Below are positions 17,173 through 41,674 of a stretch of 64,000 nucleotides of DNA, piece after piece. The notes beneath the pieces were generated by a model. It was not told where the DNA came from. It was given only the letters and a program-made list of their open reading frames with translations, and made no database searches. The position numbers and the translations under genes were made by a program. How positions within the stretch are numbered: position 1 is the first letter of the stretch; every line of letters starts with the position of its first letter. Source of the DNA: Candidatus Altiarchaeota archaeon. Lineage in GTDB: Archaea > Altiarchaeota > Altiarchaeia > IMC4 > QMZM01. The stretch is taken from positions 38,545 to 102,544 of the forward strand of contig JAFGDV010000002.1 of the NCBI GenBank assembly GCA_016931955.1, in the 5' to 3' direction.

Positions 17173-17586
17173 TCACTTATAAAAGATAGGTTTACCTTTA
17201 GATCGGACCAACCAATACTCTACAGTCCTGCCAACCCTCTTCCTTGAGATAACACCCTTGCTCTCCAAACTCTTAAGATGTTTACTGAGGGTTGGTTTGG
17301 TTACCCTTGTTTTCCCGAGCAATTCAGTAAAATTCAGTTTACCTTTGTCTAAGGCTGCTAATATACTGTCTTCAAGATTTTCCTCCCCAATTGTCAACCT
17401 TTCTTTACCAATCATCGACTTGATCTCCATTACCTCCATAAACAACCGAGGGATTATGCCAGAATCCTCACCCAGTAGCCTGCGATTCAAATCCCTCAAG
17501 TCCTCCAATATCTGGGCTATCCTCACATCATCCACACTTCTGCGCCCTATTTCCCCCCTCAATCTGCTAAGATCATCGGAATCCAT
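17173..17586 (-). CDS. Winged-helix (ArsR-like) transcriptional regulator with N-terminal helical extension
   Basis: C-terminal LNFTELL-TKPTLSKHLKSLESKGVISRKRVGRTVEY; start reassigned to ATG 17586, 1 nt after the cheC stop. Confidence 0.75.
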   Translation of the reverse strand: MDSDDLSRLRGEIGRRSVDDVRIAQILEDLRDLNRRLLGEDSGIIPRLFMEVMEIKSMIGKERLTIGEENLEDSILAALDKGKLNFTELLGKTRVTKPTLSKHLKSLESKGVISRKRVGRTVEYWLVRSKGKPIFYK

Positions 17587-17587
17587 C

Positions 17588-18262
17588 TCACCCAAGCCCC
17601 TCCCCAAATGGAGAACCAAGCTTCGTTTGAATGGCTTTGAGGATATTCCCAATTGATTTGTCATCAAGTAGGAAAACGAATTCCCCCCTCAGAGATCCCC
17701 CAGAACACATAAACTCGGTCTGGGATACTAGAGAATAATTTATTGACTCCTTCACACTCAAAAGCACAAAATAGACAATAGCGCTTGCTATATCAAAGAC
17801 TACTGACGGCACAGACAACTCAACCTCCAGATCCAAGAACTCAGCTAAGGTATTGACATACGATGCAGAGAGTATGCTCCCCAGCTCGCCCAAGGCAGAC
17901 CTATCAATGCTCTTCATAACATCCGTAGTTCCAGGCTCCCTACCGTTCAGTACATCAACCAGGGACAATGCGCTCTCCCTTGAGAAGAATAGGAGGCTTG
18001 TGCCGGCAAGATCCCCCCTCAACCTCACGTATATGCCAGTCACAAGCATATTTTTCTGTCCCACGCAGCTTGCAATCTGGTCTAAGGGGATCAGATCCAT
18101 TCCAGACATCTCTATGTCGACCCTCCTATCAATCAATTCAGATAAAGCGATTGTTGCATGGCCCATACCGATAGTCGCTATCTCCTGTAGCGCGTCAAGC
18201 TGAAGCTCTGTCAACTTCCCATACAAGCTATCGCTCTCCACCGCTTCCTTCCTATAGGACAT
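17588..18262 (-). CDS. cheC: CheC-like protein, both ExxN motifs degenerate
   Basis: DALQEIATIG and SALGELGSIL. Confidence 0.82.
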   Translation of the reverse strand: MSYRKEAVESDSLYGKLTELQLDALQEIATIGMGHATIALSELIDRRVDIEMSGMDLIPLDQIASCVGQKNMLVTGIYVRLRGDLAGTSLLFFSRESALSLVDVLNGREPGTTDVMKSIDRSALGELGSILSASYVNTLAEFLDLEVELSVPSVVFDIASAIVYFVLLSVKESINYSLVSQTEFMCSGGSLRGEFVFLLDDKSIGNILKAIQTKLGSPFGEGLG

Positions 18263-18275
18263 GTTGCTCCCCAGA

Positions 18276-18896
18276 TCAAAGAGACTTCAATTTTCTGTCA
18301 ATCTTGTTAACCAGAACGCCCAACGAAGACGAATCCAAGAGGAATATGAAATCACCCGTTATCTCGCCCCTCTTCCCCCTGAATTTGACCTGGATAATCA
18401 AAACAGACTCTATCCTCTTATCAATGCCTCGAAGCACGAAATCTATCAGAGACTTTGCGACGTCAAAAACAATGCAGGGAGGAGAATGATACAAGGTAAC
18501 ACCTAAAAAGTTGCCCAACTCGGTGAGGTAACTTGCCGTCAATATGTTACCAACCTCTCCCAAGGCAGAGCGATCATCGTAACTTAGAATCTCCGTGGTC
18601 CCAATATCCCTGCCGTAGAGCAGGTCAGATAAAGCCAGTGAGCTCTCACGCGAGAGGACCAAGAGGCTTGTTCCGCCCAGGTCGCCCATCATCCTCAAGT
18701 AGATACCCATTGCAAGCGTATCTGGACCCCCCACCCTCTTCGGCACTTCCCCTATAGGCAGAAACTGCACCTTAGACATCTCTACCTCAACACGGCTTTC
18801 AACCATCTTGGAGAGCGACTTTGTGGCAGTGACCATGCCTTTATCCGCAACGCCCTTTAAAGCCCTCTTTTGTCCCTCCGTAAGTTGAGCAACCAT
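18276..18896 (-). CDS. cheC: CheC-like protein, only the second motif intact
   Basis: RALKGVADKG (degenerate), SALGEVGNIL (intact). Confidence 0.82.
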   Translation of the reverse strand: MVAQLTEGQKRALKGVADKGMVTATKSLSKMVESRVEVEMSKVQFLPIGEVPKRVGGPDTLAMGIYLRMMGDLGGTSLLVLSRESSLALSDLLYGRDIGTTEILSYDDRSALGEVGNILTASYLTELGNFLGVTLYHSPPCIVFDVAKSLIDFVLRGIDKRIESVLIIQVKFRGKRGEITGDFIFLLDSSSLGVLVNKIDRKLKSL

Positions 18897-18906
18897 CTTC
18901 TTTTAC

Positions 18907-19386
18907 TTAGATCGAGGTAGTCGGACCATGTATCCTGCTGACGACGACCTCACCTGTTTCGGTGTCGAACCAGATAGATCTGCCCTCGGTCCCGCCAACA
19001 TCCTCGGCTACTATCTCAATGCACTTCTCTCTGAGCTTTTTTCTGACTGCTTCCACATTTTTCTTGCCTATGTCAGATATCCTTGGTACGTTGGGGAAAA
19101 TCTCGGCTCCGCCGCATAGTTTCGCTTTTATATCATGTGTCTTGCAGCCGAGGATGAGCATGCTCTTTACCATGGCATCTACTGTCTTGTCGACGAACCT
19201 CAGGGGATTGATACCCTGAGCAGCCTCTTTGCTATCTGGGAGGATTATGTGAGCTAAAGCGGCTATCTTTGTCTTCTCGTCTCTTAGACAGATGGCTACG
19301 CATGAGCCCAAACCAAGAACCTCCAGTATGCAAGGATTATGTATTATCTTGAACTCTGCCATGCCGACTGTTATCTTCTTAGTCAT
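18907..19386 (-). CDS. cheD: Chemoreceptor glutamine deamidase CheD
   Basis: GLGSCVAI and AHIILP (catalytic Cys and His), KLCGGA, EDVGGTEGRSI. Confidence 0.9.
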   Translation of the reverse strand: MTKKITVGMAEFKIIHNPCILEVLGLGSCVAICLRDEKTKIAALAHIILPDSKEAAQGINPLRFVDKTVDAMVKSMLILGCKTHDIKAKLCGGAEIFPNVPRISDIGKKNVEAVRKKLREKCIEIVAEDVGGTEGRSIWFDTETGEVVVSRIHGPTTSI

Positions 19387-20032
19387 CTTTTTTTTCTTCC
19401 ATCTCCAAGAGGTACCTGACGTTTTTGATAAGCACGCCCATGTGAGAGTAAAACAGAACTACGAAGTGGCCGGTTATCTCCAACCCTTCTACGAGGAATC
19501 GGGTGTTGAACAAGAGGGCATTTTCGACATCGCAGGCATGTTGCGCTATTATGGGGTCCATCACAGAGTCGAGCATATCCGCTGCCAGCGCTGGAAGAGA
19601 CTCCACAAGGCTCAGGTTAAGGTACTCTGCAATTGCAGAGAGATAGCTTCCTGCGAGGATGTTTCCGATCTCCATCAATGTGGAACGATCCATATCCGAC
19701 AGCTCTTCAGCTCCAGTTGCTTCCTCCCCTTGCAGGATCTTCGCAAGTGTTGCCGCATCCTTTACAGGGAGTACCAGAAGTAGACTGCATACCTCGAATT
19801 GGTTATCAAGGGATGTGCCATCAATATGCAGGTATATGTTGGTTATCTCCTTCTCTGGTCTGCCCATCTTGGATGTGACGGTTTCAAGGGGACACACCTC
19901 CATCCAAGGAAAGCTTACCTCGATCTTCTTGTCTGTAAGGGACGATAGGGCGATCGATGCATGCCCAGCTCCAATGGAGGATATCTCCATCAGGGCATCT
20001 AACTCCAGTGGCGTCAGGTTCTTGAATTTCAT
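19379..20032 (-). CDS. cheC: CheC-like protein, only the second motif intact
   Basis: DALMEISSIG, STLMEIGNIL. Confidence 0.85.
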   Translation of the reverse strand: MKFKNLTPLELDALMEISSIGAGHASIALSSLTDKKIEVSFPWMEVCPLETVTSKMGRPEKEITNIYLHIDGTSLDNQFEVCSLLLVLPVKDAATLAKILQGEEATGAEELSDMDRSTLMEIGNILAGSYLSAIAEYLNLSLVESLPALAADMLDSVMDPIIAQHACDVENALLFNTRFLVEGLEITGHFVVLFYSHMGVLIKNVRYLLEMEEKKDD

Positions 20033-21033
20033 AGTATCTCAACGATTTTATCTGCGATACCCAGCAAAGGCAGGATGAAATCCGCATCCCCGTTTCTTAT
20101 AATCATTTTAGGCATTCCAAATATTAAACTTGTTGATTCATCTTGGACTATGATCTTTCCACCATTCTTTTTTACCCACTTCACCCCATTCGCGCCGTCA
20201 TCTCCCATACCAGTTAATATAACCGCTATTACGTTTTTACCGCATACCTTCGAAACGGACTTCAATGTGACGTCTATGCAAGGCTTTACTATAGTATGTT
20301 TTTTGTTTAATTGAGTAAATAAATGTTTCCCTTTTTGCACTACCTCCAGGTTGTAACCCCCAGGAGCCACTAGAACCTTGCCTTTATCAAGTAGGCTGCC
20401 TTCTTTTGCTTCTTCCACCTTTAGTGGGCACACTGCATCCAGCGTCTCAGCGAACGCCTTAGTGAATCCCGCCGGCATGTGTTGTACGACTAGAACGGCA
20501 GCTGGAAAATCCTTTGGGAACGAAGACAGTATAGTTCTAATTGTGGCCACACCACCGCAGGAAGCACCCAATACCAAAACCTTCTCGGATATCTTAGGCG
20601 CAGACAATTTTTTCTTCGGCTTCTTTATCACGAGTTTTTTTATCTCAAGGGATGATGCGACTCGCACCAATGCTATCAGCTCTTCCTTCATTTCCTCCAG
20701 ATCGCTGAGCCGGTTAGGCATCACTATGAAGTCCACTGCCCCATAGCCTAAGGCACTCAGCATCTCCCGCCTTCCCAGATCAGATTCTCGGCCGACCACT
20801 ATCGTTGGAGTAGGATCAAGCAGCATTATGTTGTAGAGGATGTCCAATGCATGTACTCCCTTCATCTCTATGTCTAGTAGAACAACATCCGGCTCAAGGA
20901 GCTCAATCTTGTCTAAAGCCTCCTCAGCTAGACCAGAGCGGTGGATGACCTTTATCTCTGGTTCGGACTCCAGCATACATGTAAGCTTGACCCCAAAAAA
21001 ATAAGAATCCGCTATTATGAGGACCTTGATCAT
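20029..21033 (-). CDS. cheB: Chemotaxis methylesterase CheB with a degenerate receiver domain
   Basis: Esterase triad in GASCGG, VQHMP, LTGMGDDG; N-terminal REC-like domain. Confidence 0.92.
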   Translation of the reverse strand: MIKVLIIADSYFFGVKLTCMLESEPEIKVIHRSGLAEEALDKIELLEPDVVLLDIEMKGVHALDILYNIMLLDPTPTIVVGRESDLGRREMLSALGYGAVDFIVMPNRLSDLEEMKEELIALVRVASSLEIKKLVIKKPKKKLSAPKISEKVLVLGASCGGVATIRTILSSFPKDFPAAVLVVQHMPAGFTKAFAETLDAVCPLKVEEAKEGSLLDKGKVLVAPGGYNLEVVQKGKHLFTQLNKKHTIVKPCIDVTLKSVSKVCGKNVIAVILTGMGDDGANGVKWVKKNGGKIIVQDESTSLIFGMPKMIIRNGDADFILPLLGIADKIVEIL

Positions 21034-21042
21034 TCTCCCATT

Positions 21043-21411
21043 CTATGAGAATCTCCTGACAACATCAAGTATCTGCTCCCTCTTGAATGGTTTGGTTACG
21101 TAGGCCTTTGCACCTATCCTCATCGCTTCTTTCATAGGATCCCCATGGCCTATGGCGGTTACCATGACAATGACCGCTTTTGGATCTATTTTCATGATCT
21201 CGGCTAAGACCTGCAGACCATCCTTCTCTGCCATTATTATGTCCAGTAAGACGATGCCGGGCCTTTCTTTCTTGTAGACCTCAACTGTTTCAGTCCCGTT
21301 CTGGGCTTCAACGATATCGCGATAACCTTCCTCAGAGAGCATCGTCTTAAGCATATTCCTCATGAAGGCAGAATCATCTGCCAACAATACCTTAGGTTTT
21401 GCCATTTTCAT
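21043..21411 (-). CDS. cheY: CheY-like single-domain response regulator
   Basis: LADDSAFMR, LLDIIM, MVTA, VTKPF. Confidence 0.9.
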   Translation of the reverse strand: MKMAKPKVLLADDSAFMRNMLKTMLSEEGYRDIVEAQNGTETVEVYKKERPGIVLLDIIMAEKDGLQVLAEIMKIDPKAVIVMVTAIGHGDPMKEAMRIGAKAYVTKPFKREQILDVVRRFS

Positions 21412-21775
21412 CCAAGAGTTTGTTTATGTTTTTAATCAACTTTGCCTCAGTTATCGGCTTTGATATGTATGAGCACGCCCCTCGTTTGATGCAGTCCTCC
21501 ATGGTCTTCTGATCCCTTATTATGCTCGACACTATAATCTTCACCTCGGGTTTGATCTCCATCAGCCTATCGAGCACATACAACCCGTCATTGCCAGGCA
21601 TCTTCAGATCGAGCAATACGATATCTGGATCCTCTACACCGCACTTTAGTATGCAATCGTTTCCGTTAACGGCCTCGACGACATCACTGTACCCGTTTTT
21701 TTGGAGGATGCTAATCAACGCCCTGCGCTCGAACATGGAGTCATCTGCTACAAGTATCTTGACCATCAGCACCAC
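21392..21775 (-). CDS. cheY: CheY-like single-domain response regulator (FER subtype)
   Basis: VADDSMFER, LLDLKMP, ISKPI. Confidence 0.88.
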   Translation of the reverse strand: MVLMVKILVADDSMFERRALISILQKNGYSDVVEAVNGNDCILKCGVEDPDIVLLDLKMPGNDGLYVLDRLMEIKPEVKIIVSSIIRDQKTMEDCIKRGACSYISKPITEAKLIKNINKLLDENGKT

Positions 21776-21852: not shown

Positions 21853-22215
21853 ATGCACGAGTTCTCGATAGCTGAAGACATCCTGGAGGTCGCACTGGAT
21901 GAGGCGGAAAAGCATAAAGCTTCCAGGATAAAACACATCTCTGTGGAGGTTGGAGGGCTCATGATGGCGAACCTCGAGCAATTGGATTTCGCCCTCAGAT
22001 CCCTGTCAGTTGGAACCCTTGCAGAGGATATGGAAGTCGACCTGAAGACGGTCCCTGGGAGATTCAAGTGCGACAACAACCACGTGAATGAGGTAAGTAT
22101 TGAGGAGGATGACCTCTACCTGGCCCTAGCCTCTCTCAGATGCCCTGAATGCGGCAGCCCTCTAAGGGTGTTGAGCGGAAAAGAGTGCGTGCTGAAGAGG
22201 ATAATCGCCGAATAA
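21853..22215 (+). CDS. hypA: Hydrogenase nickel metallochaperone HypA
   Basis: MHE N-terminus, CPECG knuckle, SGKECVL. Confidence 0.9.
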   Translation: MHEFSIAEDILEVALDEAEKHKASRIKHISVEVGGLMMANLEQLDFALRSLSVGTLAEDMEVDLKTVPGRFKCDNNHVNEVSIEEDDLYLALASLRCPECGSPLRVLSGKECVLKRIIAE

Positions 22216-22222
22216 CGCTAAA

Positions 22223-22873
22223 ATGCATGTGATAGACGTAGACAGGGATATCATGGAGATCAACAGGAGGATATCTGAAAGGAACCAAAGAGTCTTGGAA
22301 GAGAACAATGTCTTTGGATTCGATGTTTTGGGGGCTATCGGCTCTGGCAAGACCTCCCTGATTGAGGCCTTGGTTGGGAGGATCGGGAAAAAACTGGGGA
22401 TCGGAGCGATAGCGGGTGACGTTATTAGTGACGCCGACGCCAGCCGTTTGAAGAGGTGTGGAATCCCAGTCATCGGCTTGAACACTGGAAGGGAGTGCCA
22501 TCTTGACGCCCACCTCGTCGAGCATGCGCTTGAGAGCCTTCCATTAAAGGACCTCGACATTCTGTTCATAGAGAACGTGGGGAACCTCATATGTCCAGTA
22601 GACTTCCCGCTTGGGGCACATCGGAGGATCGTTGTAGTAAGCGTGAGCGAGGGGGACGACACCGTAGAAAAGCACCCCATGATCTTCCTGGACTCTGATC
22701 TTGCGGTGATAAACAAGATAGACATCGCAGAAGCGGTTGATGCGAGCGTTGAGAAGATGGAATACGACGCCAAACGGATCAATCCACGGCTGCCTGTGAT
22801 AAAAACAAGCATGAAGAAGGGTATCGGTCTAAACGAAATAGTCGATTGGATAAGAAAAGAATCCAATCTATAG
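22223..22873 (+). CDS. hypB: Hydrogenase nickel-insertion GTPase HypB
   Basis: GAIGSGKT, ECHLDA, ENVGNLICP, NKID. Confidence 0.95.
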   Translation: MHVIDVDRDIMEINRRISERNQRVLEENNVFGFDVLGAIGSGKTSLIEALVGRIGKKLGIGAIAGDVISDADASRLKRCGIPVIGLNTGRECHLDAHLVEHALESLPLKDLDILFIENVGNLICPVDFPLGAHRRIVVVSVSEGDDTVEKHPMIFLDSDLAVINKIDIAEAVDASVEKMEYDAKRINPRLPVIKTSMKKGIGLNEIVDWIRKESNL

Positions 22874-22888
22874 TTTAATGGTGATATC

Positions 22889-23128
22889 ATGTGTCTGGCT
22901 ATCCCAGGAAGGATCCTGGATATAAAGGACAATGAAGCATCTGTTGACTTCGGCGGCGTGAAAAGGCCTGTTAGGATTGACTTAGTCGACGCCAAGGTGG
23001 GAGACTACGTCATCGTCCATACGGGATACGCAATCGAGGTATTGGATGAAGAGGAAGCTCTTGAAAGCCTGAAACTGTGGAGACAAATCCTCTCCAAAAT
23101 GGACGATGATCCTAAGAGATTTCCGTGA
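22889..23128 (+). CDS. hypC: Hydrogenase maturation protein HypC
   Basis: MCLAIPG N-terminus, GDYVIVHTGYA. Confidence 0.95.
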   Translation: MCLAIPGRILDIKDNEASVDFGGVKRPVRIDLVDAKVGDYVIVHTGYAIEVLDEEEALESLKLWRQILSKMDDDPKRFP

Positions 23129-24176
23129 TAGGGGGCTTGCCTTGAAGGCGTCAAAGGAGATAGGGGATATGGCATCAACCTTGGGCAAGGTAAAGATCAT
23201 GCACGTCTGCGGAACCCACGAAGACACAATAACCCGTTTTGGGATAAGGTCTCTTCTCCCAGAGAATGTGGAGGTGATATCCGGTCCTGGATGCCCTGTC
23301 TGCGTTACGACGAACAGGGAGATAGATGAAGCCATATCGCTCGCACAAAAAGGCATTACTGTGACGACGTTCGGTGACATGCTCCGGGTCCCTGGAAGCC
23401 GCTCCTCGCTGGCGGACTCGAAGGCTGATGGAAATGATGTGAGGATCGTCTACTCCGTAACTGACGCAGTAGAGATCGCCCATAAGAATCCGGAGAAAGA
23501 GGTTGCTCACATCGCCATAGGCTTCGAGACAACGATACCATCCAACGCGGTCGCCCTCCAAGACGCTCCTGAGAATTTCTCGATCCTATGCTGTCACCGG
23601 CTTATCCCTCCAGCGATGGAGTTGCTCTTGGAGTCTCACGAGGTGAGGATAGACGGCTTCATAGATCCTGGGCATGTTTCAGCCATAATAGGAGTAAAAC
23701 CCTATAGACCTCTGGCGGAAAAATACAGGATACCTCACGTAATCGTCGGCTTCGAGCCCCTTGACGTTCTCTTCTCCATCATAATGCTGCTGGAGATGAT
23801 AAAAAACCATGAATGTGAGGTAAGGAATGAGTACAGCCGCGTCGTCAAGGAGGAAGGCAATCAGAAGGCCTTAAGTATCATGGACGCTGTCTTCGAACCC
23901 TGCGACGTGGATTGGAGGGGCTTTCCTGTGATCCCAAGATCCGGGCTCATGTTGAGGGAACGATTCGCTGAACACGACGCAAGAGAGAGGTTCGAGCTTA
24001 GGGTAGAACCGACAGAGGATCTTCGGGGATGCAGGTGCTCTGATGTCTTGAAGGGGTTGATATATCCCAGAGAGTGCCCGCTCTTCGGTAAGGCGTGCAC
24101 TCCCAAGAAGCCTGTCGGTCCCTGCATGGTCTCTGCTGAGGGCGCATGCTCTATAATGTACAGACACACTAGCTAG
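23106..24176 (+). CDS. hypD: Hydrogenase maturation protein HypD
   Basis: HVCGTHE, GPGCPVC, GFETT, C-terminal Cys cluster with PVGPCMVSAEGAC. Confidence 0.95.
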   Translation: MILRDFRDRGLALKASKEIGDMASTLGKVKIMHVCGTHEDTITRFGIRSLLPENVEVISGPGCPVCVTTNREIDEAISLAQKGITVTTFGDMLRVPGSRSSLADSKADGNDVRIVYSVTDAVEIAHKNPEKEVAHIAIGFETTIPSNAVALQDAPENFSILCCHRLIPPAMELLLESHEVRIDGFIDPGHVSAIIGVKPYRPLAEKYRIPHVIVGFEPLDVLFSIIMLLEMIKNHECEVRNEYSRVVKEEGNQKALSIMDAVFEPCDVDWRGFPVIPRSGLMLRERFAEHDARERFELRVEPTEDLRGCRCSDVLKGLIYPRECPLFGKACTPKKPVGPCMVSAEGACSIMYRHTS

Positions 24177-24177
24177 G

Positions 24178-25176
24178 ATGGAAAGGATAAAACTCTTACA
24201 CGGTGGCGGGGGGGAAGCCATGCAGGAATTGATCTCTGACGTGATTAAGAACCTCTCCCTCACAAAGGTTGAGGGTGGGATCGGCTTGGATGCCTTGGAC
24301 GATTCAGCAACCATACCCTTTGGAGACAAGCACCTTGTCTTCACCACGGATGCGTACACTGTAAAGCCGTTGTTCTTCCATGGGGGGGACATAGGCAGGC
24401 TCTCTGTTTCAGGGACCATAAACGACCTCGCTGTTATGGGCGCTAAACCAATCGCTCTCGCCTCTTCTTTCGTTATCGGTGAAGGCCTCCCATTTGAAGA
24501 CTTGCGGAAGATAACGAAGTCCATGAACCAGGTCTGCAAGGAGGTCCCAGTACCTATTATTACAGGAGACACCAAGGTCATGGAAGACCTTGATATGATC
24601 ATAACAACGTCTGGCATAGGTTTAACAGAAAAACCGATACTGGACTCCGGGATGCGGCCAGGTGACAGGATAATAGTGAACGGCACCCTCGGCGATCACG
24701 GTATGGCGATCATGGCTCAGAGGGAGGGCATATCTTTCGAGACCGAACTGAGGTCTGACTGCGCACAGTTGTGGGGTCTTATAAAAAAGATCCTTAGATA
24801 CGAGATACATGCCATGAAGGATCCTACGAGAGGCGGCCTAGCGAACGCCTTAAATGAGATGGCTGAGAAATCAAAATCAGGGGTTTTGTTGTATGAGGAC
24901 CAGATACCCATGAAAGATGAAGTACTTGCGGCGTCTGAGATGCTTGGCATAGATCCCCTGTCTGTGGCAAACGAAGGGAAAGCCATTATTGTCACAAGCG
25001 AAAATGATACTGAGAAAATCCTAGAAACGATGAAGAAGACCCGCTTGGGTCGGGATGCCTCCATAATAGGTGAGGTGACCGAAAAAGATAAGGGACGGGT
25101 GATAATGGAGACCCGCATAGGTGGCAGAAAGATCCTCAGCAAGCCTGCCGGCGACCCTGTCCCAAGGGTCTGTTAG
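24178..25176 (+). CDS. hypE: Hydrogenase maturation protein HypE
   Basis: HGGGG, FTTDAYTV, DPTRGG, C-terminal PRVC. Confidence 0.95.
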   Translation: MERIKLLHGGGGEAMQELISDVIKNLSLTKVEGGIGLDALDDSATIPFGDKHLVFTTDAYTVKPLFFHGGDIGRLSVSGTINDLAVMGAKPIALASSFVIGEGLPFEDLRKITKSMNQVCKEVPVPIITGDTKVMEDLDMIITTSGIGLTEKPILDSGMRPGDRIIVNGTLGDHGMAIMAQREGISFETELRSDCAQLWGLIKKILRYEIHAMKDPTRGGLANALNEMAEKSKSGVLLYEDQIPMKDEVLAASEMLGIDPLSVANEGKAIIVTSENDTEKILETMKKTRLGRDASIIGEVTEKDKGRVIMETRIGGRKILSKPAGDPVPRVC

Positions 25177-25177
25177 G

Positions 25178-25639
25178 ATGAAAACCCTGATACTGGGCAT
25201 TGGGAATCCTATACTGACCGATGACGGCGTTGGTGTTTTGATTGCTGAACGCCTACGTGATGTTGTCTCAGACCCGGAAATCGATGTCCGTGAGGAATCA
25301 ACGTCTGGTCTTGACATCATAAGCCTTGTTAGGGGTTATGATAGGCTCATCCTCGTGGACGCTATAAAGACGGGTAAAGCCAGGGTTGGGGAGATACTCC
25401 GGCTCTCGCCTCAGGATATTACCAAGGAGCCTGCACTTCATTTCTCGACCCTTCATGACGCGGATTTGATGACATCCCTGAATCTTGGTAGTGAACTTGG
25501 GATAGATATCCCTAGCGAAATAGTGATATACGCTGTTGAGGTCGAAAACGTGGAGGAATTTGGCGAGAAGTGCACACCTGAAGTGGAAAAAGCCATACCC
25601 AAGGCAGTGGAATTAATAAAGGAGGAATTGGGTCTATAA
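25178..25639 (+). CDS. Hydrogenase maturation endopeptidase (HyaD/HycI family)
   Basis: GIGNPILTDDGVG, LVDA, STLHD; start reassigned to ATG 25178. Confidence 0.9.
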   Translation: MKTLILGIGNPILTDDGVGVLIAERLRDVVSDPEIDVREESTSGLDIISLVRGYDRLILVDAIKTGKARVGEILRLSPQDITKEPALHFSTLHDADLMTSLNLGSELGIDIPSEIVIYAVEVENVEEFGEKCTPEVEKAIPKAVELIKEELGL

Positions 25640-27010
25640 CCTCGGGAGGCTGGGGCTGTATGCCCTACATGCCATTTCTATCTTGTTGAGGTCTCTTCTT
25701 TTTGTGTTATTATTCCTGATCAATCCATCTGCCACCTGTTTTACAGAGACGCATATAGCCGCATTGTTGTGGTTGCTGCCCGTTATTATGTCCGCCTTCT
25801 CTACGATGCCTTTCTCGTCTGTCACATAGTGGTGGATGAGTGTCCCTGAGGGTGATTCTATAACGCCCACACCCTCCCCTTGCGTGTTTTCTGGAACATT
25901 CATCAGATTGTTGTCAGTAATCTCCGGATCCTGTATCAGCTCCAAAGCAAGCTCGGCTGAATAAAGCATTTCTATGAGGTCGGCCCAATGAAACGCCAAG
26001 GTGTGATGGCAGGGTTTCGGCAGTGTGTCAAGCATCCTCTCATATGCTTCCTGTGCCTGAGGTGTTTTCAATCCGTAGGCAACGTTTAATCTGGCCAGTG
26101 ACCCGACCCGGTAAAGCCAAGAACGATCAGCGTCAGATAGCCCCTTCCAGCCAACCTTCCTCAGATGTGAGAAACCCAGATTAGACCATGATTCCTCGTG
26201 TTCTTCCACGTGCTGGGGGTAGTCTTCTCCCCTGAACCTTAAGATCTCCCTTCCGTGGGCGTCCACGACTTTTAGATCGCCATCATAGAGTTCAAGGCGT
26301 TCTTTTTCGTCCACTGTACCCATGTAGTTCGTCTTTATATGGTAGAGCCCCTCATCGAACAGTAGATCCACGTATGCACGATTCTTTAACACGATTTCTT
26401 CGAACAGATTTAATGTAAACGCTGCGAATTCTGTAAATGACTTTACTTTGCCCTCTACCCAATCCCTCTCCTCTCCAGTGATACCCCGAGAGACGCCTCC
26501 GGGAAGCCCGCTTACTGGATGAACTGCCCTTCCCCCCAAGACCTGGAGTATCCTCTGTGCACGAAGAAGGTTTTCTGCCGCGTCCTTTGAGGTTTCCCTC
26601 CCGAGCCTCGCCGTTATTGCAGTGAGATTCCTTTCGCGAGCTGCTGAATCAGGGTTGATGAATAGGTCTGGAGCATTCAGGTAATAAAAATTTAGTAGTT
26701 TATTCCCAAAATGGGAGATATGGTATGTTAGTCTCCTTAGCTTGTCTGCTGTGGGTGTTGGCTCTGTTTTCCACAGAGCATCAAGTGCCTTCACAGACGC
26801 TATATGATGGGCCCAGCTGCATAGCCCGCTCATCCTTGAAATGATCCTCGGCATCTCCTCAGACGGCTGTCCGCGACATAATTCCTCAAAACCCTTCATA
26901 CCCTTCGCTTGAAAGTACGCACTCACTCCCATCTCCCTATCTGAAAATATAGTTATCCTAGCGTGGCCGTTTATTCTCGTTACCGGGTCTATTATTATCT
27001 TTTTCCTCAA
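25634..27010 (-). CDS. MvhA-like [NiFe]-hydrogenase large-subunit homologue lacking Ni ligands (pseudo-enzyme, intact ORF)
   Basis: End-to-end similarity to the large subunit at 45312; L1 is RMSGLC, L2 is RAYSPSLPRL-stop, RINGH replaces RxEGH, ESPSG replaces EAPRG. Confidence 0.88.
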   Translation of the reverse strand: MRKKIIIDPVTRINGHARITIFSDREMGVSAYFQAKGMKGFEELCRGQPSEEMPRIISRMSGLCSWAHHIASVKALDALWKTEPTPTADKLRRLTYHISHFGNKLLNFYYLNAPDLFINPDSAARERNLTAITARLGRETSKDAAENLLRAQRILQVLGGRAVHPVSGLPGGVSRGITGEERDWVEGKVKSFTEFAAFTLNLFEEIVLKNRAYVDLLFDEGLYHIKTNYMGTVDEKERLELYDGDLKVVDAHGREILRFRGEDYPQHVEEHEESWSNLGFSHLRKVGWKGLSDADRSWLYRVGSLARLNVAYGLKTPQAQEAYERMLDTLPKPCHHTLAFHWADLIEMLYSAELALELIQDPEITDNNLMNVPENTQGEGVGVIESPSGTLIHHYVTDEKGIVEKADIITGSNHNNAAICVSVKQVADGLIRNNNTKRRDLNKIEMACRAYSPSLPRL

Positions 27011-27987: not shown

Positions 27988-28366
27988 TCTCCCACCTTAG
28001 GGGTCCCAGGGATTTAAGCTTTGACGTCATCTCCTTGACAAGTTTCATGAACCCAAAGCTCTCAGACTCCTTAAGGCATTCGAAGCGTAGCCTTTCCCTG
28101 CTTATCCTCAGATCAGAGAGCAACCTTTGGAGGAGAACAAACCTCTTGAATGCTTCCCCGTCTTCCTCCGCTGAGTGGCATTCCCCCGGAGGGCTGCACA
28201 GCATCAGGATTCCGTCTGCGCCTTTTTTGAGTTCTGAGAGCAGAAGCTTTGGGTTAAGGTGATTAACACATCCCTCCCTTACCAGGGGGATTTCCTCAAG
28301 GCCGACGTTTTTAGGCAGACAGGATTTACAGGCAAAGACAATGATCTTGGGCTCATATTCTTCCAT
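27977..28366 (-). CDS. Divergent MvhD/FlpD-like Fe-S protein
   Basis: EPKIIVFACKSC, GADGILMLC-GECH, ERLRFE-KLKSLGP match the MvhD layout. Confidence 0.75.
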   Translation of the reverse strand: MEEYEPKIIVFACKSCLPKNVGLEEIPLVREGCVNHLNPKLLLSELKKGADGILMLCSPPGECHSAEEDGEAFKRFVLLQRLLSDLRISRERLRFECLKESESFGFMKLVKEMTSKLKSLGPLRWENEA

Positions 28367-29216
28367 TTATGATCTTCTCCGTTATTCCCTCATACGCGCT
28401 CTTCACCTTCCCATCCGACCTATAATGGGAGAGTGGCAAGCCTCTTTTCTGCGCTTCGTAGACCTTTTTGGAGTATGGTACTATGAAAAGGTCTCCTCTG
28501 AACCCAACGCCTACCGACAAATGCAGCCGTAGTTTGTCTTCAAGCTCACTGAGGGGGTCTTCAAGAGACAGAAACCCTGATAGTTTCGGTACCCTATCCC
28601 TCAGCATCTTGTGTATTGGACGCACCGTGGGTTCCTGGAACCTTGTAACAATCACAGTGTTGATCCCCTTCTTCACGCCCTCCCTTTCTTCTATATTCTT
28701 CAGTATCTCAGCAAAGGTTTCGATGCTGTCTATGGAGAAGAAACCGCTGTCCAAGGGTAGTATGATAGAGTCTGCTGCAACGATTGCATTGGTCAGTAGT
28801 GGCGTGTAGCTGGGGGGCGTATCTATCAGTATGTAATCATAGAGTTCTCTGACATCGTCTAGGGCTCGATCAAGTATCTGGGAGGAACCCTTAGCCTTCT
28901 GCATGTGACCAAGGATGTTCGCCAGATTCAGTTCTGACGGAGCCAGATGAAGATCCTCTATCTCTGTTGCAAGTATCACATTCCTGAACCTTAACTTCCT
29001 TTTTCTCCCGCATCCCTCAAGAAGCACATCATATACCGAGAACGGCAGGTATCTTTTGTTTATATTCAAACCAGCGGTTGCGTTTGCTTGGGGGTCCATG
29101 TCGACGACAAGGACCTTCTTGCCTCTTTTCACCAGTTCCCCCGCAATGTTTATGCATGAGGTCGTCTTGCCCGTGCCGCCCTTATGGTGGGCGAATGCTA
29201 TGCATTTAGCCCGCAT
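28353..29216 (-). CDS. Orphan ParA/Soj/MinD family ATPase
   Basis: Deviant Walker A KGGTGKTT, DMDPQAN, IDTPPS; start reassigned to ATG 29216. Confidence 0.9.
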   Translation of the reverse strand: MRAKCIAFAHHKGGTGKTTSCINIAGELVKRGKKVLVVDMDPQANATAGLNINKRYLPFSVYDVLLEGCGRKRKLRFRNVILATEIEDLHLAPSELNLANILGHMQKAKGSSQILDRALDDVRELYDYILIDTPPSYTPLLTNAIVAADSIILPLDSGFFSIDSIETFAEILKNIEEREGVKKGINTVIVTRFQEPTVRPIHKMLRDRVPKLSGFLSLEDPLSELEDKLRLHLSVGVGFRGDLFIVPYSKKVYEAQKRGLPLSHYRSDGKVKSAYEGITEKIINGRI

Positions 29217-29321
29217 CCTAATCAACAATATCGCAGAAAGTTCAGCCAGATGGATTACAAGAGACGCACGCTTGAGCCTCTTTAAGCATATATTAAGTAG
29301 AACTATTATAAATACGTGTAA

Positions 29322-29951
29322 CTATTCCCCGACCTTCTTGTCAAGTTTTTCTATGATCAGCTTCAGTGATTTTGAGTCTGGGAGGAATATCAATCTCCCC
29401 TTTATCGTGGTCTCCTTCGCCGTGAACTCCGTCGCCAGAATGAGTGCCTTCTTTATCTCCCATGTGAAGCCCTTCCTTATGTCGGTGACAGACCTCTCCG
29501 TCATTGTGAAAGAAACCAGTGGAACATGATGGCACGGCCGCACATCCAAAAAATCGCTGAGTGCTGTAAGATATGATCCAAAGAGTATGTTGGATAACTC
29601 ACTCAGAGCATCCCGCGATATCTGATCCAACACACTGGTTTCTTTTCTTACCAGGATATTGCTGATTATTATGTCAGCCAATTTCGTCGCATCTTCTCTC
29701 TCAAAGACCATCACTATCAGGGCATTGATGTCGCCTGTTATGAGGGAGGAGATTTCGACGAGCAAATCCCTCGGAGGTGCAAGGGTTGAGGGTACTTCGT
29801 CGATGCCGACCAGTTTCACCCATGGAACCCTCAACATTATCTCGCAGTCTAGCATCTCTGAGAGGGCGACGCTTGAGCTCCCGGCGCCGATAGTCCCTAC
29901 CTCTCTAAGAGCATCCAGCTGCAGCTTCGTCATACCTATGTCTTCCGTCAT
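29322..29951 (-). CDS. cheC: CheC-like protein, only the second motif intact
   Basis: DALREVGTIG, DALSELSNIL; ATG 29951 fits the upstream TATA spacing. Confidence 0.82.
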   Translation of the reverse strand: MTEDIGMTKLQLDALREVGTIGAGSSSVALSEMLDCEIMLRVPWVKLVGIDEVPSTLAPPRDLLVEISSLITGDINALIVMVFEREDATKLADIIISNILVRKETSVLDQISRDALSELSNILFGSYLTALSDFLDVRPCHHVPLVSFTMTERSVTDIRKGFTWEIKKALILATEFTAKETTIKGRLIFLPDSKSLKLIIEKLDKKVGE

Positions 29952-30000
29952 CCTCTTATAGATTTTACTCAATCATGTATAAAAACATGTGAACGGCAGA

Positions 30001-30053: not shown

Positions 30054-30419
30054 ATGCCTAAGATTTTGACCATAGAAGACTCTACTTTTGAGAGGAAGGC
30101 CATACGCGATATGCTGGCTAGGGCAGGGTACACCAGCGTAGTGGAGGCTGAGAGCGGCGAGATCGGCTTAGAGAGGTACAAGAAGGAAAAACCTGACCTT
30201 GTTTTATTGGATCTCCGGATGCCAGGTATGCCTGGGATGGAAGTCTTAGAGGAGTTGAAGAAGATCAATCCAAGAGTCAGGGTGATAATAGTCAGCATAG
30301 TGAGGAAGAAGGAGACCGTCGACGAAGCGTTGAAGCTGGGCGTCGAAGCCTATGTTTCAAAACCGATCACTACCGAGAAACTAATACCTGAAGTTAAAAA
30401 AGCATTAGGAGGGAATTAA
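30054..30419 (+). CDS. cheY: CheY-like response regulator (FER subtype)
   Basis: IEDSTFER, LLDLRMP, VSKPI. Confidence 0.88.
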   Translation: MPKILTIEDSTFERKAIRDMLARAGYTSVVEAESGEIGLERYKKEKPDLVLLDLRMPGMPGMEVLEELKKINPRVRVIIVSIVRKKETVDEALKLGVEAYVSKPITTEKLIPEVKKALGGN

Positions 30420-30779
30420 ATGACCAAAATACTATTAGCGGATGATTCTGCCTTTATGAGGAAGATACTGACTAACATATTAACCAAGAAGGGATACACT
30501 GACCTCATCGAAGCTGTGGATGGAGAAGAGACTGTGGCAGCCTATACCAGAGAAAAACCGGACCTTGTTCTCTTGGATATAGTAATGAAGAAGAAATACG
30601 GAACCGAGGCGTTGAAGGACATAATGCAGATGGATCCAAACGCCAAGATAATAATGGTATCGGCAGTAGGGCAGGAGAAGGTTATCGAGGAGGCAATTCA
30701 ATTAGGCGCCAAGGGTTTTGTTGTTAAACCCTTCAAGGAAGAGGAAGTCTTAAGCAAGGTTAAGGAAGTCCTTGGCTAA
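30420..30779 (+). CDS. cheY: CheY-like response regulator
   Basis: LADDSAFMR, LLDIVM, VVKPF. Confidence 0.92.
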   Translation: MTKILLADDSAFMRKILTNILTKKGYTDLIEAVDGEETVAAYTREKPDLVLLDIVMKKKYGTEALKDIMQMDPNAKIIMVSAVGQEKVIEEAIQLGAKGFVVKPFKEEEVLSKVKEVLG

Positions 30780-30797
30780 TTCTCTGAATGCTCGGAA

Positions 30798-32387
30798 ATG
30801 GCAGATGACATGAGTGAATATAAGGAGCTCTACCTGAAGGAGGCGGAGGAATTACTGCAAAGCCTGAATTCTTCACTACTTGAGTTCGAGAAGAACCCGA
30901 CAAGGGAGGACCTTATAAAGGAGATGGCACGTTGTGCCCATACACTCAAGAGTAATTCTTCTTCAATGGGTTTCGAGAAACTGGCGGAATTATCTCACTC
31001 CATGGAGGACGGGTTGTTGATGCTCCAGGAGTCCGGCATTGAAGCCAGCGATGAGATCATCGACCTCCTCTTTGAATGCTTCGACTACCTGGAGGTCTCA
31101 GTGGACAAGGTAAGCACTGGTGAGGAGGAACCAGACAACACAGATCTTTTGAAGAAACTGGAGGTGCTGAAATCCACTGACATAAAGAAGAGGAGTAAGG
31201 AGGAGTCTGGTGTGAAACTCGCCGAACGGCCTCAGACCATCAGGAGGCTTCGCTCAATCAAGGTGGACATCAAGATCCTAGATAAATTGGTGGACTTGGT
31301 TGGAGAACTACTGACCGCAACCATGAGGTTCCAGAACCTGAACTCAACGTACAAGATCAAGGAATTCGACAAGATAATAAACCAGCTGAATATGCTAACG
31401 GAGGATATCCAATACGAGGTCACTGAAGCAAGAATGATCCCTGTTGGCCAGGTATTCAACCGGTTTCCGAGGATGGTGCGAGACCTGGCGAAGAGGGAGA
31501 ACAAGAAGGTGGACTTCACCATTGAGGGAAGCGACATACAACTGGATAGAACTGTGTTGGATCAGATCGGTGAGCCACTGATCCATCTGCTGAGGAATTC
31601 CATAGACCACGGCATCGAATCTCCGGAGGAGAGGATTAAGGCAGGCAAACCCGAGACAGGCAAAATCCATTTGAGAGCCAGTAGAGAGAAAAACGCCGTA
31701 ATCATTGAGGTCATTGACGATGGCGCAGGCTTCGATGAAGACAAGATAAAGGAGATAGCAATAAAAAAGGGCGTGATAACGGAGGAGGAGGCTAAGACCA
31801 TACCCAAAAAGCAGTTACTGGATATCCCATTTCTGCCCACTTTCAGCACATCCGATAAGGTCACCAAGGTCTCCGGCAGAGGGGTTGGATTGGATGTTGT
31901 CAAGACAAAGATTGATGAACTAAATGGGTCGCTGAAGATGGAGACCGAAAAGAGCAAGGGGACGAGATTCATCCTAGGTCTGCCGCACACTCTAGCAATC
32001 ATCAAGTGCCTCCTAACGTACGTCGGCGAGGAACGCTATGCTTTGCCCATCATTGATATCTCAAGGATCGTCAACATCGAAGAATCTAGGATGCAACACA
32101 TCGAAGGCAATGAAGTCTTCATTCTCGATGGCGAAGACATACCCCTGATAAGGCTGCGCGACGTATTTAATCTGCCCCGCAAGAAAGACAGAAAACTGAC
32201 GGTAATAATTACTGAGAGAACCCAGGAGAAGAACGGTATTGCTGTGGATGGGATCATCGGTGAACAGGAGCTTATGATAAAGTCGGTGACTAAAACGCTG
32301 AAGAAGATCAAGGGAATAGCAGGTGCTACCATCCTTGGCGATGGTCAACCCGCCATGGTCTTGGATATTAATGGCCTGCTTGCTTAG
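30798..32387 (+). CDS. cheA: Chemotaxis histidine kinase CheA (no P2 domain)
   Basis: HPT AHTLKS, HLLRNSIDHGIE, DDGAG, SGRGVGLDVV, C-terminal CheW-like P5. Confidence 0.95.
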   Translation: MADDMSEYKELYLKEAEELLQSLNSSLLEFEKNPTREDLIKEMARCAHTLKSNSSSMGFEKLAELSHSMEDGLLMLQESGIEASDEIIDLLFECFDYLEVSVDKVSTGEEEPDNTDLLKKLEVLKSTDIKKRSKEESGVKLAERPQTIRRLRSIKVDIKILDKLVDLVGELLTATMRFQNLNSTYKIKEFDKIINQLNMLTEDIQYEVTEARMIPVGQVFNRFPRMVRDLAKRENKKVDFTIEGSDIQLDRTVLDQIGEPLIHLLRNSIDHGIESPEERIKAGKPETGKIHLRASREKNAVIIEVIDDGAGFDEDKIKEIAIKKGVITEEEAKTIPKKQLLDIPFLPTFSTSDKVTKVSGRGVGLDVVKTKIDELNGSLKMETEKSKGTRFILGLPHTLAIIKCLLTYVGEERYALPIIDISRIVNIEESRMQHIEGNEVFILDGEDIPLIRLRDVFNLPRKKDRKLTVIITERTQEKNGIAVDGIIGEQELMIKSVTKTLKKIKGIAGATILGDGQPAMVLDINGLLA

Positions 32388-32403
32388 ATACCACAGTACC
32401 AAA

Positions 32404-33081
32404 ATGACTGAACTATCAAAATTCGAGATCGACGCGATAGCTGAGATAATAAACATCGGTGCAGGGCATGCATCCAACGCACTATCCGTGATGACTCGCA
32501 AGGACATACACATGAGCTTCCCTGAGGTGAAACTATGTCCGATAGAAAAGATACCCCAGCTCCTTGGCAATCCCGAGGACCTGGTTGCCGCAGTTTATCT
32601 CAAGATCGAGGGCAAGAGTAACAACAAACTCATCCCCGTTGGAAGCCTGATCTTTATGTTACAGCATGATAGCGCAGAGGAGCTTGCGGCGCTTTTAGAG
32701 AACAGGAAACCGCCTAAAGAGAAGAGTTTCGAACTCGGTGAGATGGATGTATCCGCATTAGAGGAGACTGGAAACATCCTCAGCGGTGCTTCATTAACAG
32801 CGATAAGCAAGGTCCTTGACATGCAATTGGTCGAGTCACTGCCACATTTCGCACACGACATGCTTCAAGCAGTATTGAGTTTCTGTTTGATCGAGCTGGC
32901 CCCAAAGGCGACGGATGCGTTGACATTTACGACCGCATTCGAGGTCGAAGGCCACGAAATAGACGCCTACTTCCTCCTTTTATTAGACCCAGAGAGCTTA
33001 GAGCTCCTCAGTAAGAGACTGAGGACACTATTTGAGGATATGCTAGCGGAATACATAGAAGAGGAGTACTCAGATGCGTGA
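32404..33081 (+). CDS. cheC: CheC phosphatase, both motifs intact
   Basis: DAIAEIINIG and SALEETGNIL; start reassigned to ATG 32404. Confidence 0.88.
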   Translation: MTELSKFEIDAIAEIINIGAGHASNALSVMTRKDIHMSFPEVKLCPIEKIPQLLGNPEDLVAAVYLKIEGKSNNKLIPVGSLIFMLQHDSAEELAALLENRKPPKEKSFELGEMDVSALEETGNILSGASLTAISKVLDMQLVESLPHFAHDMLQAVLSFCLIELAPKATDALTFTTAFEVEGHEIDAYFLLLLDPESLELLSKRLRTLFEDMLAEYIEEEYSDA

Positions 33082-33553
33082 GAAACAAGCATATTTGAAC
33101 ATAGGGGAGGGCAGGGTAGTTAATGAACCGACGATTCTCGAAGCAGTTGGCATAGGCTCATGCATCGTAATCTGCCTTTATGATAAAGAAAAAAGGGTGG
33201 CTGGCATGGTCCATGCCCTATTAGGCAACAATCCGCATGACGAAAAAGCGGATCTGAATCCCATGAGGTTCGCCGATACTGCTATAGATCTCCTATTAGG
33301 GGAGATGGCCGAAAAGGGCTGCCAAAAGGGGAACATAGTCGCGAAGATCTTCGGCGGGGCTAAACTCTTTACCTTGGAACACATCAACGTGGGCGAAGAT
33401 AACATATTTGCTGTAAGACAGAAACTCGAAGAGGTTGGAATACCAATAGTAGCTGAAGACACCGGTGGAAAACACGGCAGGAATATCTGGTTCGACACAG
33501 AAAACGGGAAAGTAGTTGTTGGGAGGGTCTTCGGACCCACGTTGGAGTATTAG
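33074..33553 (+). CDS. cheD: CheD deamidase
   Basis: GIGSCIVI, MVHALL, KIFGGA, EDTGGKHGRNI. Confidence 0.9.
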   Translation: MREKQAYLNIGEGRVVNEPTILEAVGIGSCIVICLYDKEKRVAGMVHALLGNNPHDEKADLNPMRFADTAIDLLLGEMAEKGCQKGNIVAKIFGGAKLFTLEHINVGEDNIFAVRQKLEEVGIPIVAEDTGGKHGRNIWFDTENGKVVVGRVFGPTLEY

Positions 33554-34371
33554 CTAACCTTCCTGAATATCCTCTCAGAGAGGCTGACCAGATTGAATTT
33601 CTTATGCATTGCCTCATGCATTGTCTCTGTTTTCCCTATTACGAGATAACCCTCCTTGGCCAGTGAGTCATAGAATGCCTCAAAGATTTCCTTCTGCGTA
33701 TCCCTTGAGAAGTAGATGAAAACGTTCCTGCAGAATATCACGTCCACATAGTGCTGAGGCTTTCCGTTTATCAGGTCGCTTTTTTCGAATTTCACCATGG
33801 ACTTTATGCTGTCCCTTAACCTGTAATAGTCGCAGACCTTGTCGAAGTATTTTTCCAGTAACTCAACACCAACATTCTTGAGAAGGTCTTTTTCGTATAA
33901 GCCTCTCACAGCATCCCCCAGGCACTTTTCATCGATATCTGTCGCCTTTATAGCTACTACAAAGTTCTTCATATCATCCCCAAGTAGCTCTTGGAGGATG
34001 ATTGCTATGCTGTAGGGTTCTTCGCCGGCTGCGCATCCGGCAGACCATATGCTTATAACCTTCTTTCCCTCCCTCTTCTTCCTATCAATCAGTTCGGGAA
34101 AGATCTCTTCCCTCAATAGATCAAACATCTCCTTGTCCCTGAAAAACTCGGTGAAATTGATCGTTAACACATCCACTAGCTTGTCGTATTCCCTCTTGTT
34201 GTTTATGAGTAACCTTATGTATTCCCCATATGACTGAACATTATTGACCTTCATCCGGACGTTGATCCTCCTCTTCAGGGTCGTGTCTTTGTAGTTTTTA
34301 CAGTTGAAGCCCCTCTCCCTTTGTATCATGTCCTTGAGCAACTCGAAATCGTCTCTCGTCTCCATCTTCAA
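33550..34371 (-). CDS. cheR: Chemotaxis methyltransferase CheR
   Basis: TINFTEFFRD, WSAGCAAGEEPYS, ATDID, IFCRNVFIYF. Confidence 0.95.
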   Translation of the reverse strand: MKMETRDDFELLKDMIQRERGFNCKNYKDTTLKRRINVRMKVNNVQSYGEYIRLLINNKREYDKLVDVLTINFTEFFRDKEMFDLLREEIFPELIDRKKREGKKVISIWSAGCAAGEEPYSIAIILQELLGDDMKNFVVAIKATDIDEKCLGDAVRGLYEKDLLKNVGVELLEKYFDKVCDYYRLRDSIKSMVKFEKSDLINGKPQHYVDVIFCRNVFIYFSRDTQKEIFEAFYDSLAKEGYLVIGKTETMHEAMHKKFNLVSLSERIFRKVS

Positions 34372-41663: not shown

Positions 41664-41674
41664 GAGGTAAAAAA

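Follow-up and report, generated by a model that had tools for sequence, protein, structure and literature searches.

A predicted nickel-free homologue of the Mvh-type hydrogenase large subunit, kept with its iron-sulfur partners in a Candidatus Altiarchaeota genome

For the reuse of a hydrogenase large subunit as a scaffold or substrate site, the accepted precedent is provided by the Ni-less derivatives of group 4 [NiFe] hydrogenases (PMC6085437; PMC7886697). In these proteins, which include NuoD/FpoD, MbxL (MbsL) and Ehr, the fold is kept and the cysteines of the L1 and L2 motifs are lost, as has been noted for NuoD/FpoD (PMC7886697), and the iron-sulfur (Fe-S) cluster of the small subunit is retained. 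A 64,000-nucleotide stretch of a Candidatus Altiarchaeota genome (assembly GCA_016931955.1, contig JAFGDV010000002.1, positions 38,545 to 102,544; hereafter the window) encodes a protein, here called MvhA*, that resembles them in these respects. Whereas the group 4 derivatives belong to membrane-bound, ion-translocating complexes, MvhA* is of group 3c (Mvh-type) ancestry and its operon encodes three subunits that are all of soluble types; it represents a NuoD/MbxL-like loss of the metal site, but in a soluble group 3 enzyme.

MvhA of the F420-non-reducing group 3c complex HdrABC-MvhAGD (PDB 5ODC) resembles MvhA* in fold, is among its best sequence matches and has the same partners, namely MvhD and an MvhG small subunit with three [4Fe-4S] clusters. 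MvhA* differs from it in having neither a NiFe site nor a cleavable extension, and its locus differs in lacking hdrABC and in an operon that starts with a ParA-type ATPase gene inside a chemotaxis (che) cluster. A large subunit without a C-terminal extension is also found in the group 2b regulatory hydrogenases (HoxBC/HupUV), which have a non-energetic, signalling-linked role. These group 2 proteins, however, have all four cysteines, bind NiFe and signal through a histidine kinase, whereas in the group 3 protein MvhA* the Cys ligands are lost; no histidine kinase gene is present in the mvhA* operon. A parallel from an unrelated superfamily, [FeFe] rather than [NiFe], is HylA of HylABC-FdhF2, which together with eukaryotic Nar1/NARF belongs to the [FeFe]-hydrogenase homologues without H-cluster motifs (PMC6085437); like MvhA*, HylA has lost its active-site motifs yet is retained in a soluble Fe-S electron-transfer complex.

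The mvhA* open reading frame (25634..27010, minus strand) consists of 458 codons, with a TTG start that overlaps the stop codon of the preceding small-subunit gene (AATTGA) and a TAG stop; the remaining five frames across this stretch contain 16-40 stops. The protein matches PF00374 (Ni-dependent hydrogenase large subunit) at 5.2e-18 in Pfam and is a member of the [NiFe]-hydrogenase large-subunit superfamily (PF00374/HoxH fold). An initial annotation, made from the sequence alone, had described a full-length frame colinear with the intact large subunit encoded at 45312-46748, and indeed all 458 codons are open and the two proteins align end to end with 38% identity. The substitutions that it listed (RINGH, RMSGLC, ESPSG and SPSLPRL-stop) are likewise present both in the alignment and at the codon level (Table 1). 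Seven of the eight catalytic residues are lost and further family-invariant residues are altered (P65S, R344D, A386S, V410T, T412S, H104K and H107N); C64, the Cys at the bridging position, and the HH pair after L1 are retained. The same source held that no C-terminal extension remains that would need proteolysis, which agrees with a match to the VhuU region in both canonical paralogues of the genome but not in MvhA*. Its further statement that the protein ends at the maturation cleavage site has to be corrected, as the actual end falls two residues short of where the C-terminal His of CxxH would stand. The last 6 nt of mvhA* overlap a convergent hycI-like gene, and no L2 motif is restored by an alternative frame, read-through or a frameshift in any frame downstream of mvhA*. 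A VhuU-like C-terminal peptide supplied in trans was considered and ruled out, since SPSLPRL fills the L2 position and C61 is lost too.

Relatives of MvhA* were taken from a 5.8-billion-protein database, and the best 120 matches were examined. The motifs RxEGH, xxCGxC, EAPRG and DPCxxCxxH are found in 119 of the 119 best relatives, the cysteine motifs being missing from the query alone. Invariant columns are altered in MvhA* at five of six catalytic positions versus 8 of 55 others (Fisher p = 0.001), and several of these eight flank catalytic residues (L13, P65, A386, V410, T412). With its ligands changed in this way, MvhA* cannot form a Cys4-ligated NiFe(CN)2CO site in the canonical manner. 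The features on which group 3c competence depends, i.e., the L1 Cys pair, L2 DPCxxCxxH with its extension, the proton-gate Glu, the canopy Arg and the canopy Asp, are all absent, and what the locus does provide is an adjacent mvhD gene and a small subunit that has the ligands of all three [4Fe-4S] clusters (proximal, medial and distal). Since none of the features that define a catalytic [NiFe] hydrogenase is present in MvhA*, the protein ought not to be classified as one.

The best matches of MvhA* are all of group 3c type, not group 4 or NuoD. Its nearest relatives are canonical 3c-type sequences (50% identity) and the paralogue P0065 from the same contig (46%), rather than the paralogue at 45312; no full-length database protein is more than 50% identical to it and it is a singleton at 90% clustering. 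The VhuA model matches residues 4-430 with 298 bits, and the NuoD model NF004739, which weakly matches both canonical paralogues, gives no match to MvhA*. An AlphaFold2 model of MvhA* has a mean predicted local distance difference test (pLDDT) score of 92 and a predicted template modelling (pTM) score of 0.93, and its best PDB match in Foldseek is MvhA, 5odc_F (PDB 5ODC), with template modelling (TM) scores of 0.93/0.95 and a root-mean-square deviation of 1.7 Å.

An orthologue of MvhA* (P0278, 65% identity) was reached only through a small-subunit search, on a metagenome contig, L003, that stems from a different sequencing run. Gene order on L003 is that of the window: GDE, three small genes, cheR, cheD, cheC, cheA, cheY, cheY, cheC, parA, mvhD, mvhG and the large-subunit gene, and the start/stop overlaps along parA-mvhD-mvhG-mvhA* are kept in both genomes. 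The L003 contig ends within the large-subunit gene, after 349 codons without a stop, and the L2 loss is thus demonstrated for the window only. Homologues with the same substitutions had been named in the initial annotation as a way of telling repurposing from decay, and this syntenic orthologue shares both the Glu to Asn change at L0 (RVNGH) and a broken L1. The cysteine lost from L1 differs between the two, with RMSGLCSWAHH in the window and RMCGLGSWAHH in L003, such that C61 is lost only in the former and C64 only in the latter. The comparison of the two proteins used the 103 columns that both cover and in which canonical relatives show at least 95% conservation; 70 of these columns are kept in both orthologues and 16 are altered in both (12 to an identical new residue), the others being changed in the window only (10) or in L003 only (7). 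The 12 shared derived residues are N14, L44, Q48, L63, S65, K104, L116, A131, A145, L148, N277 and R284, and position 334 has a new Cys in both proteins. With 16 columns changed in both proteins and 12 of them alike, the common ancestor of the window/L003 pair was therefore already derived. To judge from these columns, the new residue states are in turn conserved, and constraint did not prevent the independent loss of an L1 cysteine in each lineage. All cluster cysteines of the partner subunits are kept in both genomes (12 in MvhG and 4 in MvhD).

A search with the C-terminal 159 amino acids (aa) of MvhA* returned canonical fragments only, and a degenerate DNA pattern for DP[VIM]TRxNGH gave only chance matches in GTDB genomes. 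In JGI metagenomes the DP[VIM]TRxNGH pattern found two unrelated, high-GC (guanine plus cytosine), group-1-like genes with intact cysteines. These large subunits (L018, ~212-700, minus strand; L021, 3468-3752, plus strand) carry DPVTRVNGH, with the proton-gate Glu changed to Asn, beside an intact RICGAC L1 motif, and the L018 gene adjoins an apparent group-1 type small subunit.

The mvhA* gene closes a four-gene unit on the minus strand, parA-mvhD-mvhG-mvhA*, in which successive genes overlap by 14, 11 and 4 nt and which is predicted to be transcribed as one unit with coupled translation. The three small subunits of the genome all share the 12 cysteines of MvhG, which make up the medial and distal cluster sites and, as CxxC...C...C, the proximal one. 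Both MvhG orthologues have a common, lineage-specific N-terminal extension of ~22 residues and are without a ~19-residue insertion that is found in the canonical paralogue. The ParA protein was considered as a metal or cluster ATPase of the NifH, Mrp or CooC type; this was ruled out by its ParA/Soj signatures and the lack of a CxxC or CxC motif. No membrane subunit genes (antiporter-like or NuoH-like) lie beside mvhA*, whose neighbours are parA, che, hyp and hycI, and no hdr genes are present within 10 kb on either side of the operon or elsewhere in the window.

Nonsynonymous (dN) and synonymous (dS) divergence were calculated between the window and L003. For mvhA*, a dN of 0.22 and a dS of ~2.4, which is saturated, give an approximate dN/dS of 0.09 by the NG86 method; the ratio is about 0.2 with the dS typical of the locus and at most ~0.3 with the smallest locus dS, and hence not near 1, the value that had been proposed as the mark of a recent pseudogene. 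The partner genes gave dN 0.25 and dN/dS 0.15-0.19 (mvhG) and dN 0.29 and dN/dS 0.22-0.35 (mvhD), and the neighbouring che genes dN 0.04-0.15 and dS 0.7-2.4. In a neutral simulation the mvhA* frame remained open in 6.6% of runs at 0.05 substitutions/site, in 0.4% at 0.1 and in 0 of 500 at 0.2 or more, and the dS at this locus is at least 0.7. At the level of substitution patterns, these data show that MvhA* has been under purifying selection since before the split of the two lineages.

It is accordingly very improbable that mvhA* is a decaying paralogue (pseudogene) which arose by duplication or transfer of an mvhDGA operon and whose frame is open by chance. Such a fate would be compatible with the isolated position of MvhA* among full-length database proteins described above and with the independent loss of two L1 cysteines in two lineages, which points to relaxed constraint at those sites. 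It would also fit a rate faster than that of the canonical paralogue: identity to the same bacterial 3c references is 46-52% for the Ni-less pair versus 57-66% to most, and 52% to one, for P0065, a moderate acceleration of the pair. Against decay stand, however, the dN/dS ratios well below 1, the 458 and at least 349 open codons in two lineages at a dS of at least 0.7, where the neutral expectation is <1% already at 0.1 substitutions/site, the 70 of 103 conserved columns kept in both orthologues, and partner genes that are intact with all ligands and with their translational coupling preserved. Harder still to credit is an artefact of sequencing or assembly, or a hydrogenase that remains active with an unconventional metal site. 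No support was found for either, though C64 and the HH pair after L1 are kept, and the assembly error that had been allowed for is dismissed by an identical protein in two assemblies, on the 112-kb contig of the NCBI metagenome-assembled genome and on a 72-kb Logan contig that was assembled separately. There is, in addition, the orthologue in another sample, and what separates MvhA* from the canonical sequence is no frameshift but a set of seven individual codon substitutions, several of them requiring two base changes. We know of no [NiFe] chemistry that would be possible once three of four ligands, the C-terminal His and the Glu, Arg and Asp are missing. Decay and artefact are rejected because of the low dN/dS, the open frames in two lineages, the enrichment of changes at the catalytic site, a GC content, overall and at third codon positions (GC3), that matches the neighbouring genes, and the agreement of two assemblies. 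The idea of a repurposed Ni-free scaffold rather than decay, put forward in the initial annotation, is supported by the orthologue, by dN/dS and by the Fe-S ligands of the partner subunits, with the function itself being inferred.

When 1.84 billion cluster representatives were scanned exhaustively with HMMER, the matches were mostly canonical proteins, plus scattered full-length group-3-like large subunits with degenerate motifs (Table 1). The latter (P0126, P0128/P0271, P0133, P0134, P0145, P0156, P0209 and the P0233 family among them) are like MvhA* in their degenerate Cys motifs and shortened C-terminus and in the canopy Arg, which is missing in nearly all of them; their 90%-identity clusters have 1-3 members each. 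That they form one family with the window protein was ruled out. They scatter in a neighbour-joining tree and all seven that were checked are without the derived residues of the window/L003 pair, and the losses are therefore taken to be independent. The genes adjoin small-subunit genes and mostly mvhD too. Their operons contain hdrA, often with POR/AOR, whereas the family of MvhA* lacks hdr and is the one accompanied by parA and che genes. From the occurrence of Ni-less large subunits in hdrA-mvhD-mvhG operons elsewhere it follows that Mvh modules without a NiFe site are, as far as gene content can tell, recurrent and usually Hdr-linked. The initial annotation had known of no described soluble MvhA-type equivalent; this stands in so far as no published description of soluble Ni-less group-3 large subunits was found in open-access full texts, an earlier description being possible, but the databases do hold independent examples. 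Two further group-3 proteins, P0125 (461 aa) and P0132 (462 aa), have all four cysteines and end exactly at the CxxH His, with no extension and no evident need for an endopeptidase.

The most plausible reading, to which we give a probability of about 0.6, is that MvhA* is a functional Ni-free descendant of a group 3c (Mvh-type) large subunit and acts as scaffold for an H2-independent Fe-S electron wire. The large subunit would survive as the structural partner needed by MvhG, much as NuoD does for NuoB in complex I, and MvhA*-MvhG-MvhD would conduct electrons through the proximal, medial and distal clusters to the MvhD cluster, with the wire docking through MvhD onto a flavoprotein or Hdr-like partner. 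Several observations weigh against this proposal. Neither a flavoprotein gene nor another candidate docking partner adjoins the operon or is present in the window; the canonical HdrA of this genome, moreover, already carries its own fused MvhD domain. The second copy is partial (to residue 349) and the family is carried by two genomes only. The dS near saturation makes dN/dS approximate, and the evolutionary rates of all three subunits are 2-4 times those of the che genes nearby, indicating relaxed constraint compared with typical genes. The structural model, which owes its high confidence to the canonical homologues in its alignment, shows that the sequence is compatible with the fold and is no proof that the apo-protein adopts it.

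A less likely alternative is that a new substrate or ligand site has formed in the former NiFe pocket, adjacent to the proximal [4Fe-4S] cluster; MvhA*GD would then be a soluble reductase or oxidase of a small molecule. The 12 derived residues and Cys 334 common to both orthologues suggest that new constraints replaced the old, including at or near the active site, and group 4 descendants offer a precedent for a new site in this pocket, with the quinone site between NuoD and NuoB in complex I and with MBS/Mbx (polysulfide). The remaining L1 Cys, however, differs between the orthologues (S-C versus C-G), so that part of the pocket looks unconstrained, and the operon contains no candidate substrate gene. 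More doubtful is a role as a cytoplasmic redox/energy sensor or localised redox component of chemotaxis, in which the Fe-S clusters would report redox state to the Che proteins and ParA would position the module. ParA-like proteins position chemosensory arrays in some bacteria, as does MinD4 in Haloferax, and the operon directly follows a cheC gene that diverges from cheYYACD, with a second che set beyond the hyp genes; this arrangement is kept in both genomes as far as L003 reaches, as is the 14-nt parA-mvhD overlap. The entire neighbourhood is common to these two related genomes, though, so the synteny may be simply inherited. No Che-interaction domain was found in MvhA*, MvhG or MvhD, the other Ni-less large subunits occur in Hdr rather than che contexts, and to our knowledge no hydrogenase-like chemotaxis input has been described. 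Beyond the electron wire preferred here, it can be speculated that soluble Ni-less modules (a Ni-less large subunit with MvhG and MvhD) constitute an overlooked, repeatedly evolved class of H2-independent electron-input or sensing devices, in most lineages feeding HdrA-type bifurcating flavoproteins encoded beside POR or AOR genes, and that the present one was recruited with ParA into chemotaxis as a redox/energy sensor or acquired a new substrate site in the NiFe pocket; the odds of this broader scenario are low.

The mvhA* locus shows that loss of the metal site from a soluble large subunit of Mvh type need not end its retention by selection, together with its Fe-S partners, and the database scan shows that such loss happened several times, usually in hdrA operons. 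Hydrogenase survey pipelines filter out large subunits without Cys pairs (Poudel et al., 2018, PMC6085437), and genome papers tend to annotate mvhADG-like clusters as an H2-using or H2-producing module; for instance, type III hdrA clusters have been reported to contain mvhADG and H2 production has been proposed (PMC12054007, 2025). H2 metabolism is over-predicted wherever Ni-less large-subunit genes are counted as hydrogenases, and if the P0233-type loci correspond to those type III hdrA clusters, the inference of H2 production needs rechecking. The locus also offers a small soluble three-subunit system for studying the step from hydrogenase to non-hydrogenase redox module that is thought to underlie the origin of complex I.

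Table 1. Features of the mvhA* locus (window coordinates) and other large subunits with degenerate motifs (coordinates of their own contigs).
Feature	Position	Strand	Remarks
mvhA*, MvhA-type [NiFe]-hydrogenase large-subunit homologue	25634..27010	-	without 3/4 metal-ligand Cys, proton-gate Glu, canopy Arg and Asp, C-terminal His and extension
L0 motif R12-I-N14-G-H	26963..26977	-	canonical RxEGH; Glu to Asn, codon AAC; alignment
L1 motif R59-M-S61-G-L-C64	26819..26836	-	canonical RxCGxC; first Cys to Ser (AGC), second Cys kept; alignment
Canopy motif E385-S-P-S388-G	25844..25858	-	canonical EAPRG; Arg to Ser; alignment
C-terminus A-Y-S452-P-S454-L-P-R457-L458-stop	25634..25657	-	canonical AYDPCxxCxxH + ~30-aa extension; Asp to Ser, Cys to Ser, Cys to Arg
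mvhG-type small subunit, 326 aa	27007..27987	-	all 12 Cys for three [4Fe-4S] clusters; stop overlaps mvhA* start
Stand-alone mvhD (FlpD), 129 aa	27977..28366	-	four Cys in both orthologues; 11-nt overlap with mvhG
ParA/Soj-type P-loop ATPase (KGGTGKTT)	28353..29216	-	stop 14 nt inside mvhD in both genomes; orthologues 80% identical
TTTATAATA, archaeal TATA-box-like element	29304..29312	-	~88 nt upstream of parA, within ~40-nt stretch near-identical in both loci; putative promoter element
cheC-like phosphatase gene	29322..29972	-	directly upstream, same strand; diverges from cheY-cheY-cheA-cheC-cheD (30054 onward), then cheR
hypA-hypB-hypC-hypD-hypE and HycI-type endopeptidase	21853..25639	+	convergent on mvhA*
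P0126			L1 RIWDIS; ESPQG; ends RAY
P0128			L1 HINSGC; EAPQG; ends DPCP
P0133			L1 RICGGS; EASQG; C-terminus NPCIPDSTH
P0134			L1 MVCGSN; ESPEG
P0145			L1 RMSAIS; EAPNG; ends RAYGPTL
P0156, P0198/P0253, P0209, P0236/P0260			further large subunits with degenerate motifs
P0233/P0238/P0240/P0265/P0187 family			no L1/L2 Cys; ESPxG; ends LPF in all but P0187
P0134 context	L025 6001-7290, L026 2616-3905 and L027 5982-7352 (together with P0271/P0128)		porDABG-hdrA-mvhD-mvhG-large subunit; archaeal-looking contig
P0128/P0271 context	as for P0134		por-hdrA-mvhD-mvhG-large subunit, then hdrB, Fe-S protein, flavoprotein; archaeal-looking contigs
P0233, P0187 context	L028 6001-7311, L030 6001-7407		hdrC/B, ~1,120-residue HdrA with GltD-like insertion, mvhD, mvhG, large subunit, ferredoxin; then AOR in P0233 locus (L028)
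P0209 context			HoxU-like and HoxY-like gene, then large subunit

The genome also encodes two canonical hydrogenases. A canonical hdrA(fused mvhD)-mvhG-mvhA(P0065)-hdrC-hdrB operon with hypF lies ~30 kb away on the same contig, and a third small/large pair, likewise canonical, is found in the window at 44335-46748. Since both are present, the hyp genes and the proteases presumably serve these two enzymes and not mvhA*. The third pair is part of a cluster on the plus strand (43046-46748) that consists of a HycI-like protease, an 83-aa 2x[4Fe-4S] ferredoxin, a 182-aa protein (43785-44333) without a Pfam or NCBIfam match, the small subunit and a large subunit of 478 aa whose motifs are all canonical; neither an mvhD nor an hdr gene is present in it. 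Upstream of this cluster (40327-42829, plus strand) are two paralogous Cache-domain membrane proteins without an output domain.

Two che sets, one at 17173-21775 on the minus strand and the other at 30054-34371, flank the hyp genes and parA-mvhDGA* in inverted orientation. The first, which lies beyond the hyp genes as seen from mvhA*, is cheY-cheY-cheB-cheC-cheD-cheC-cheC-HxlR, with a methyl-accepting chemotaxis protein gene at 14736-16868; the second is cheY-cheY-cheA-cheC-cheD with cheR. Each set diverges from its neighbour over an intergenic region of ~80 bp. Elsewhere in the window, five paralogous sensor histidine kinases (527-554 aa, with HisKA and HATPase_c) are encoded in tandem at 48403-56894 on the plus strand, the first of which is followed by a lone response regulator gene (49991-50356), and two adjacent proteins of 681 and 715 aa (6981-11218, plus strand) contain CarboxypepD_reg, Big_1 and PEGA-type immunoglobulin-like repeats and are probably located at the cell surface.

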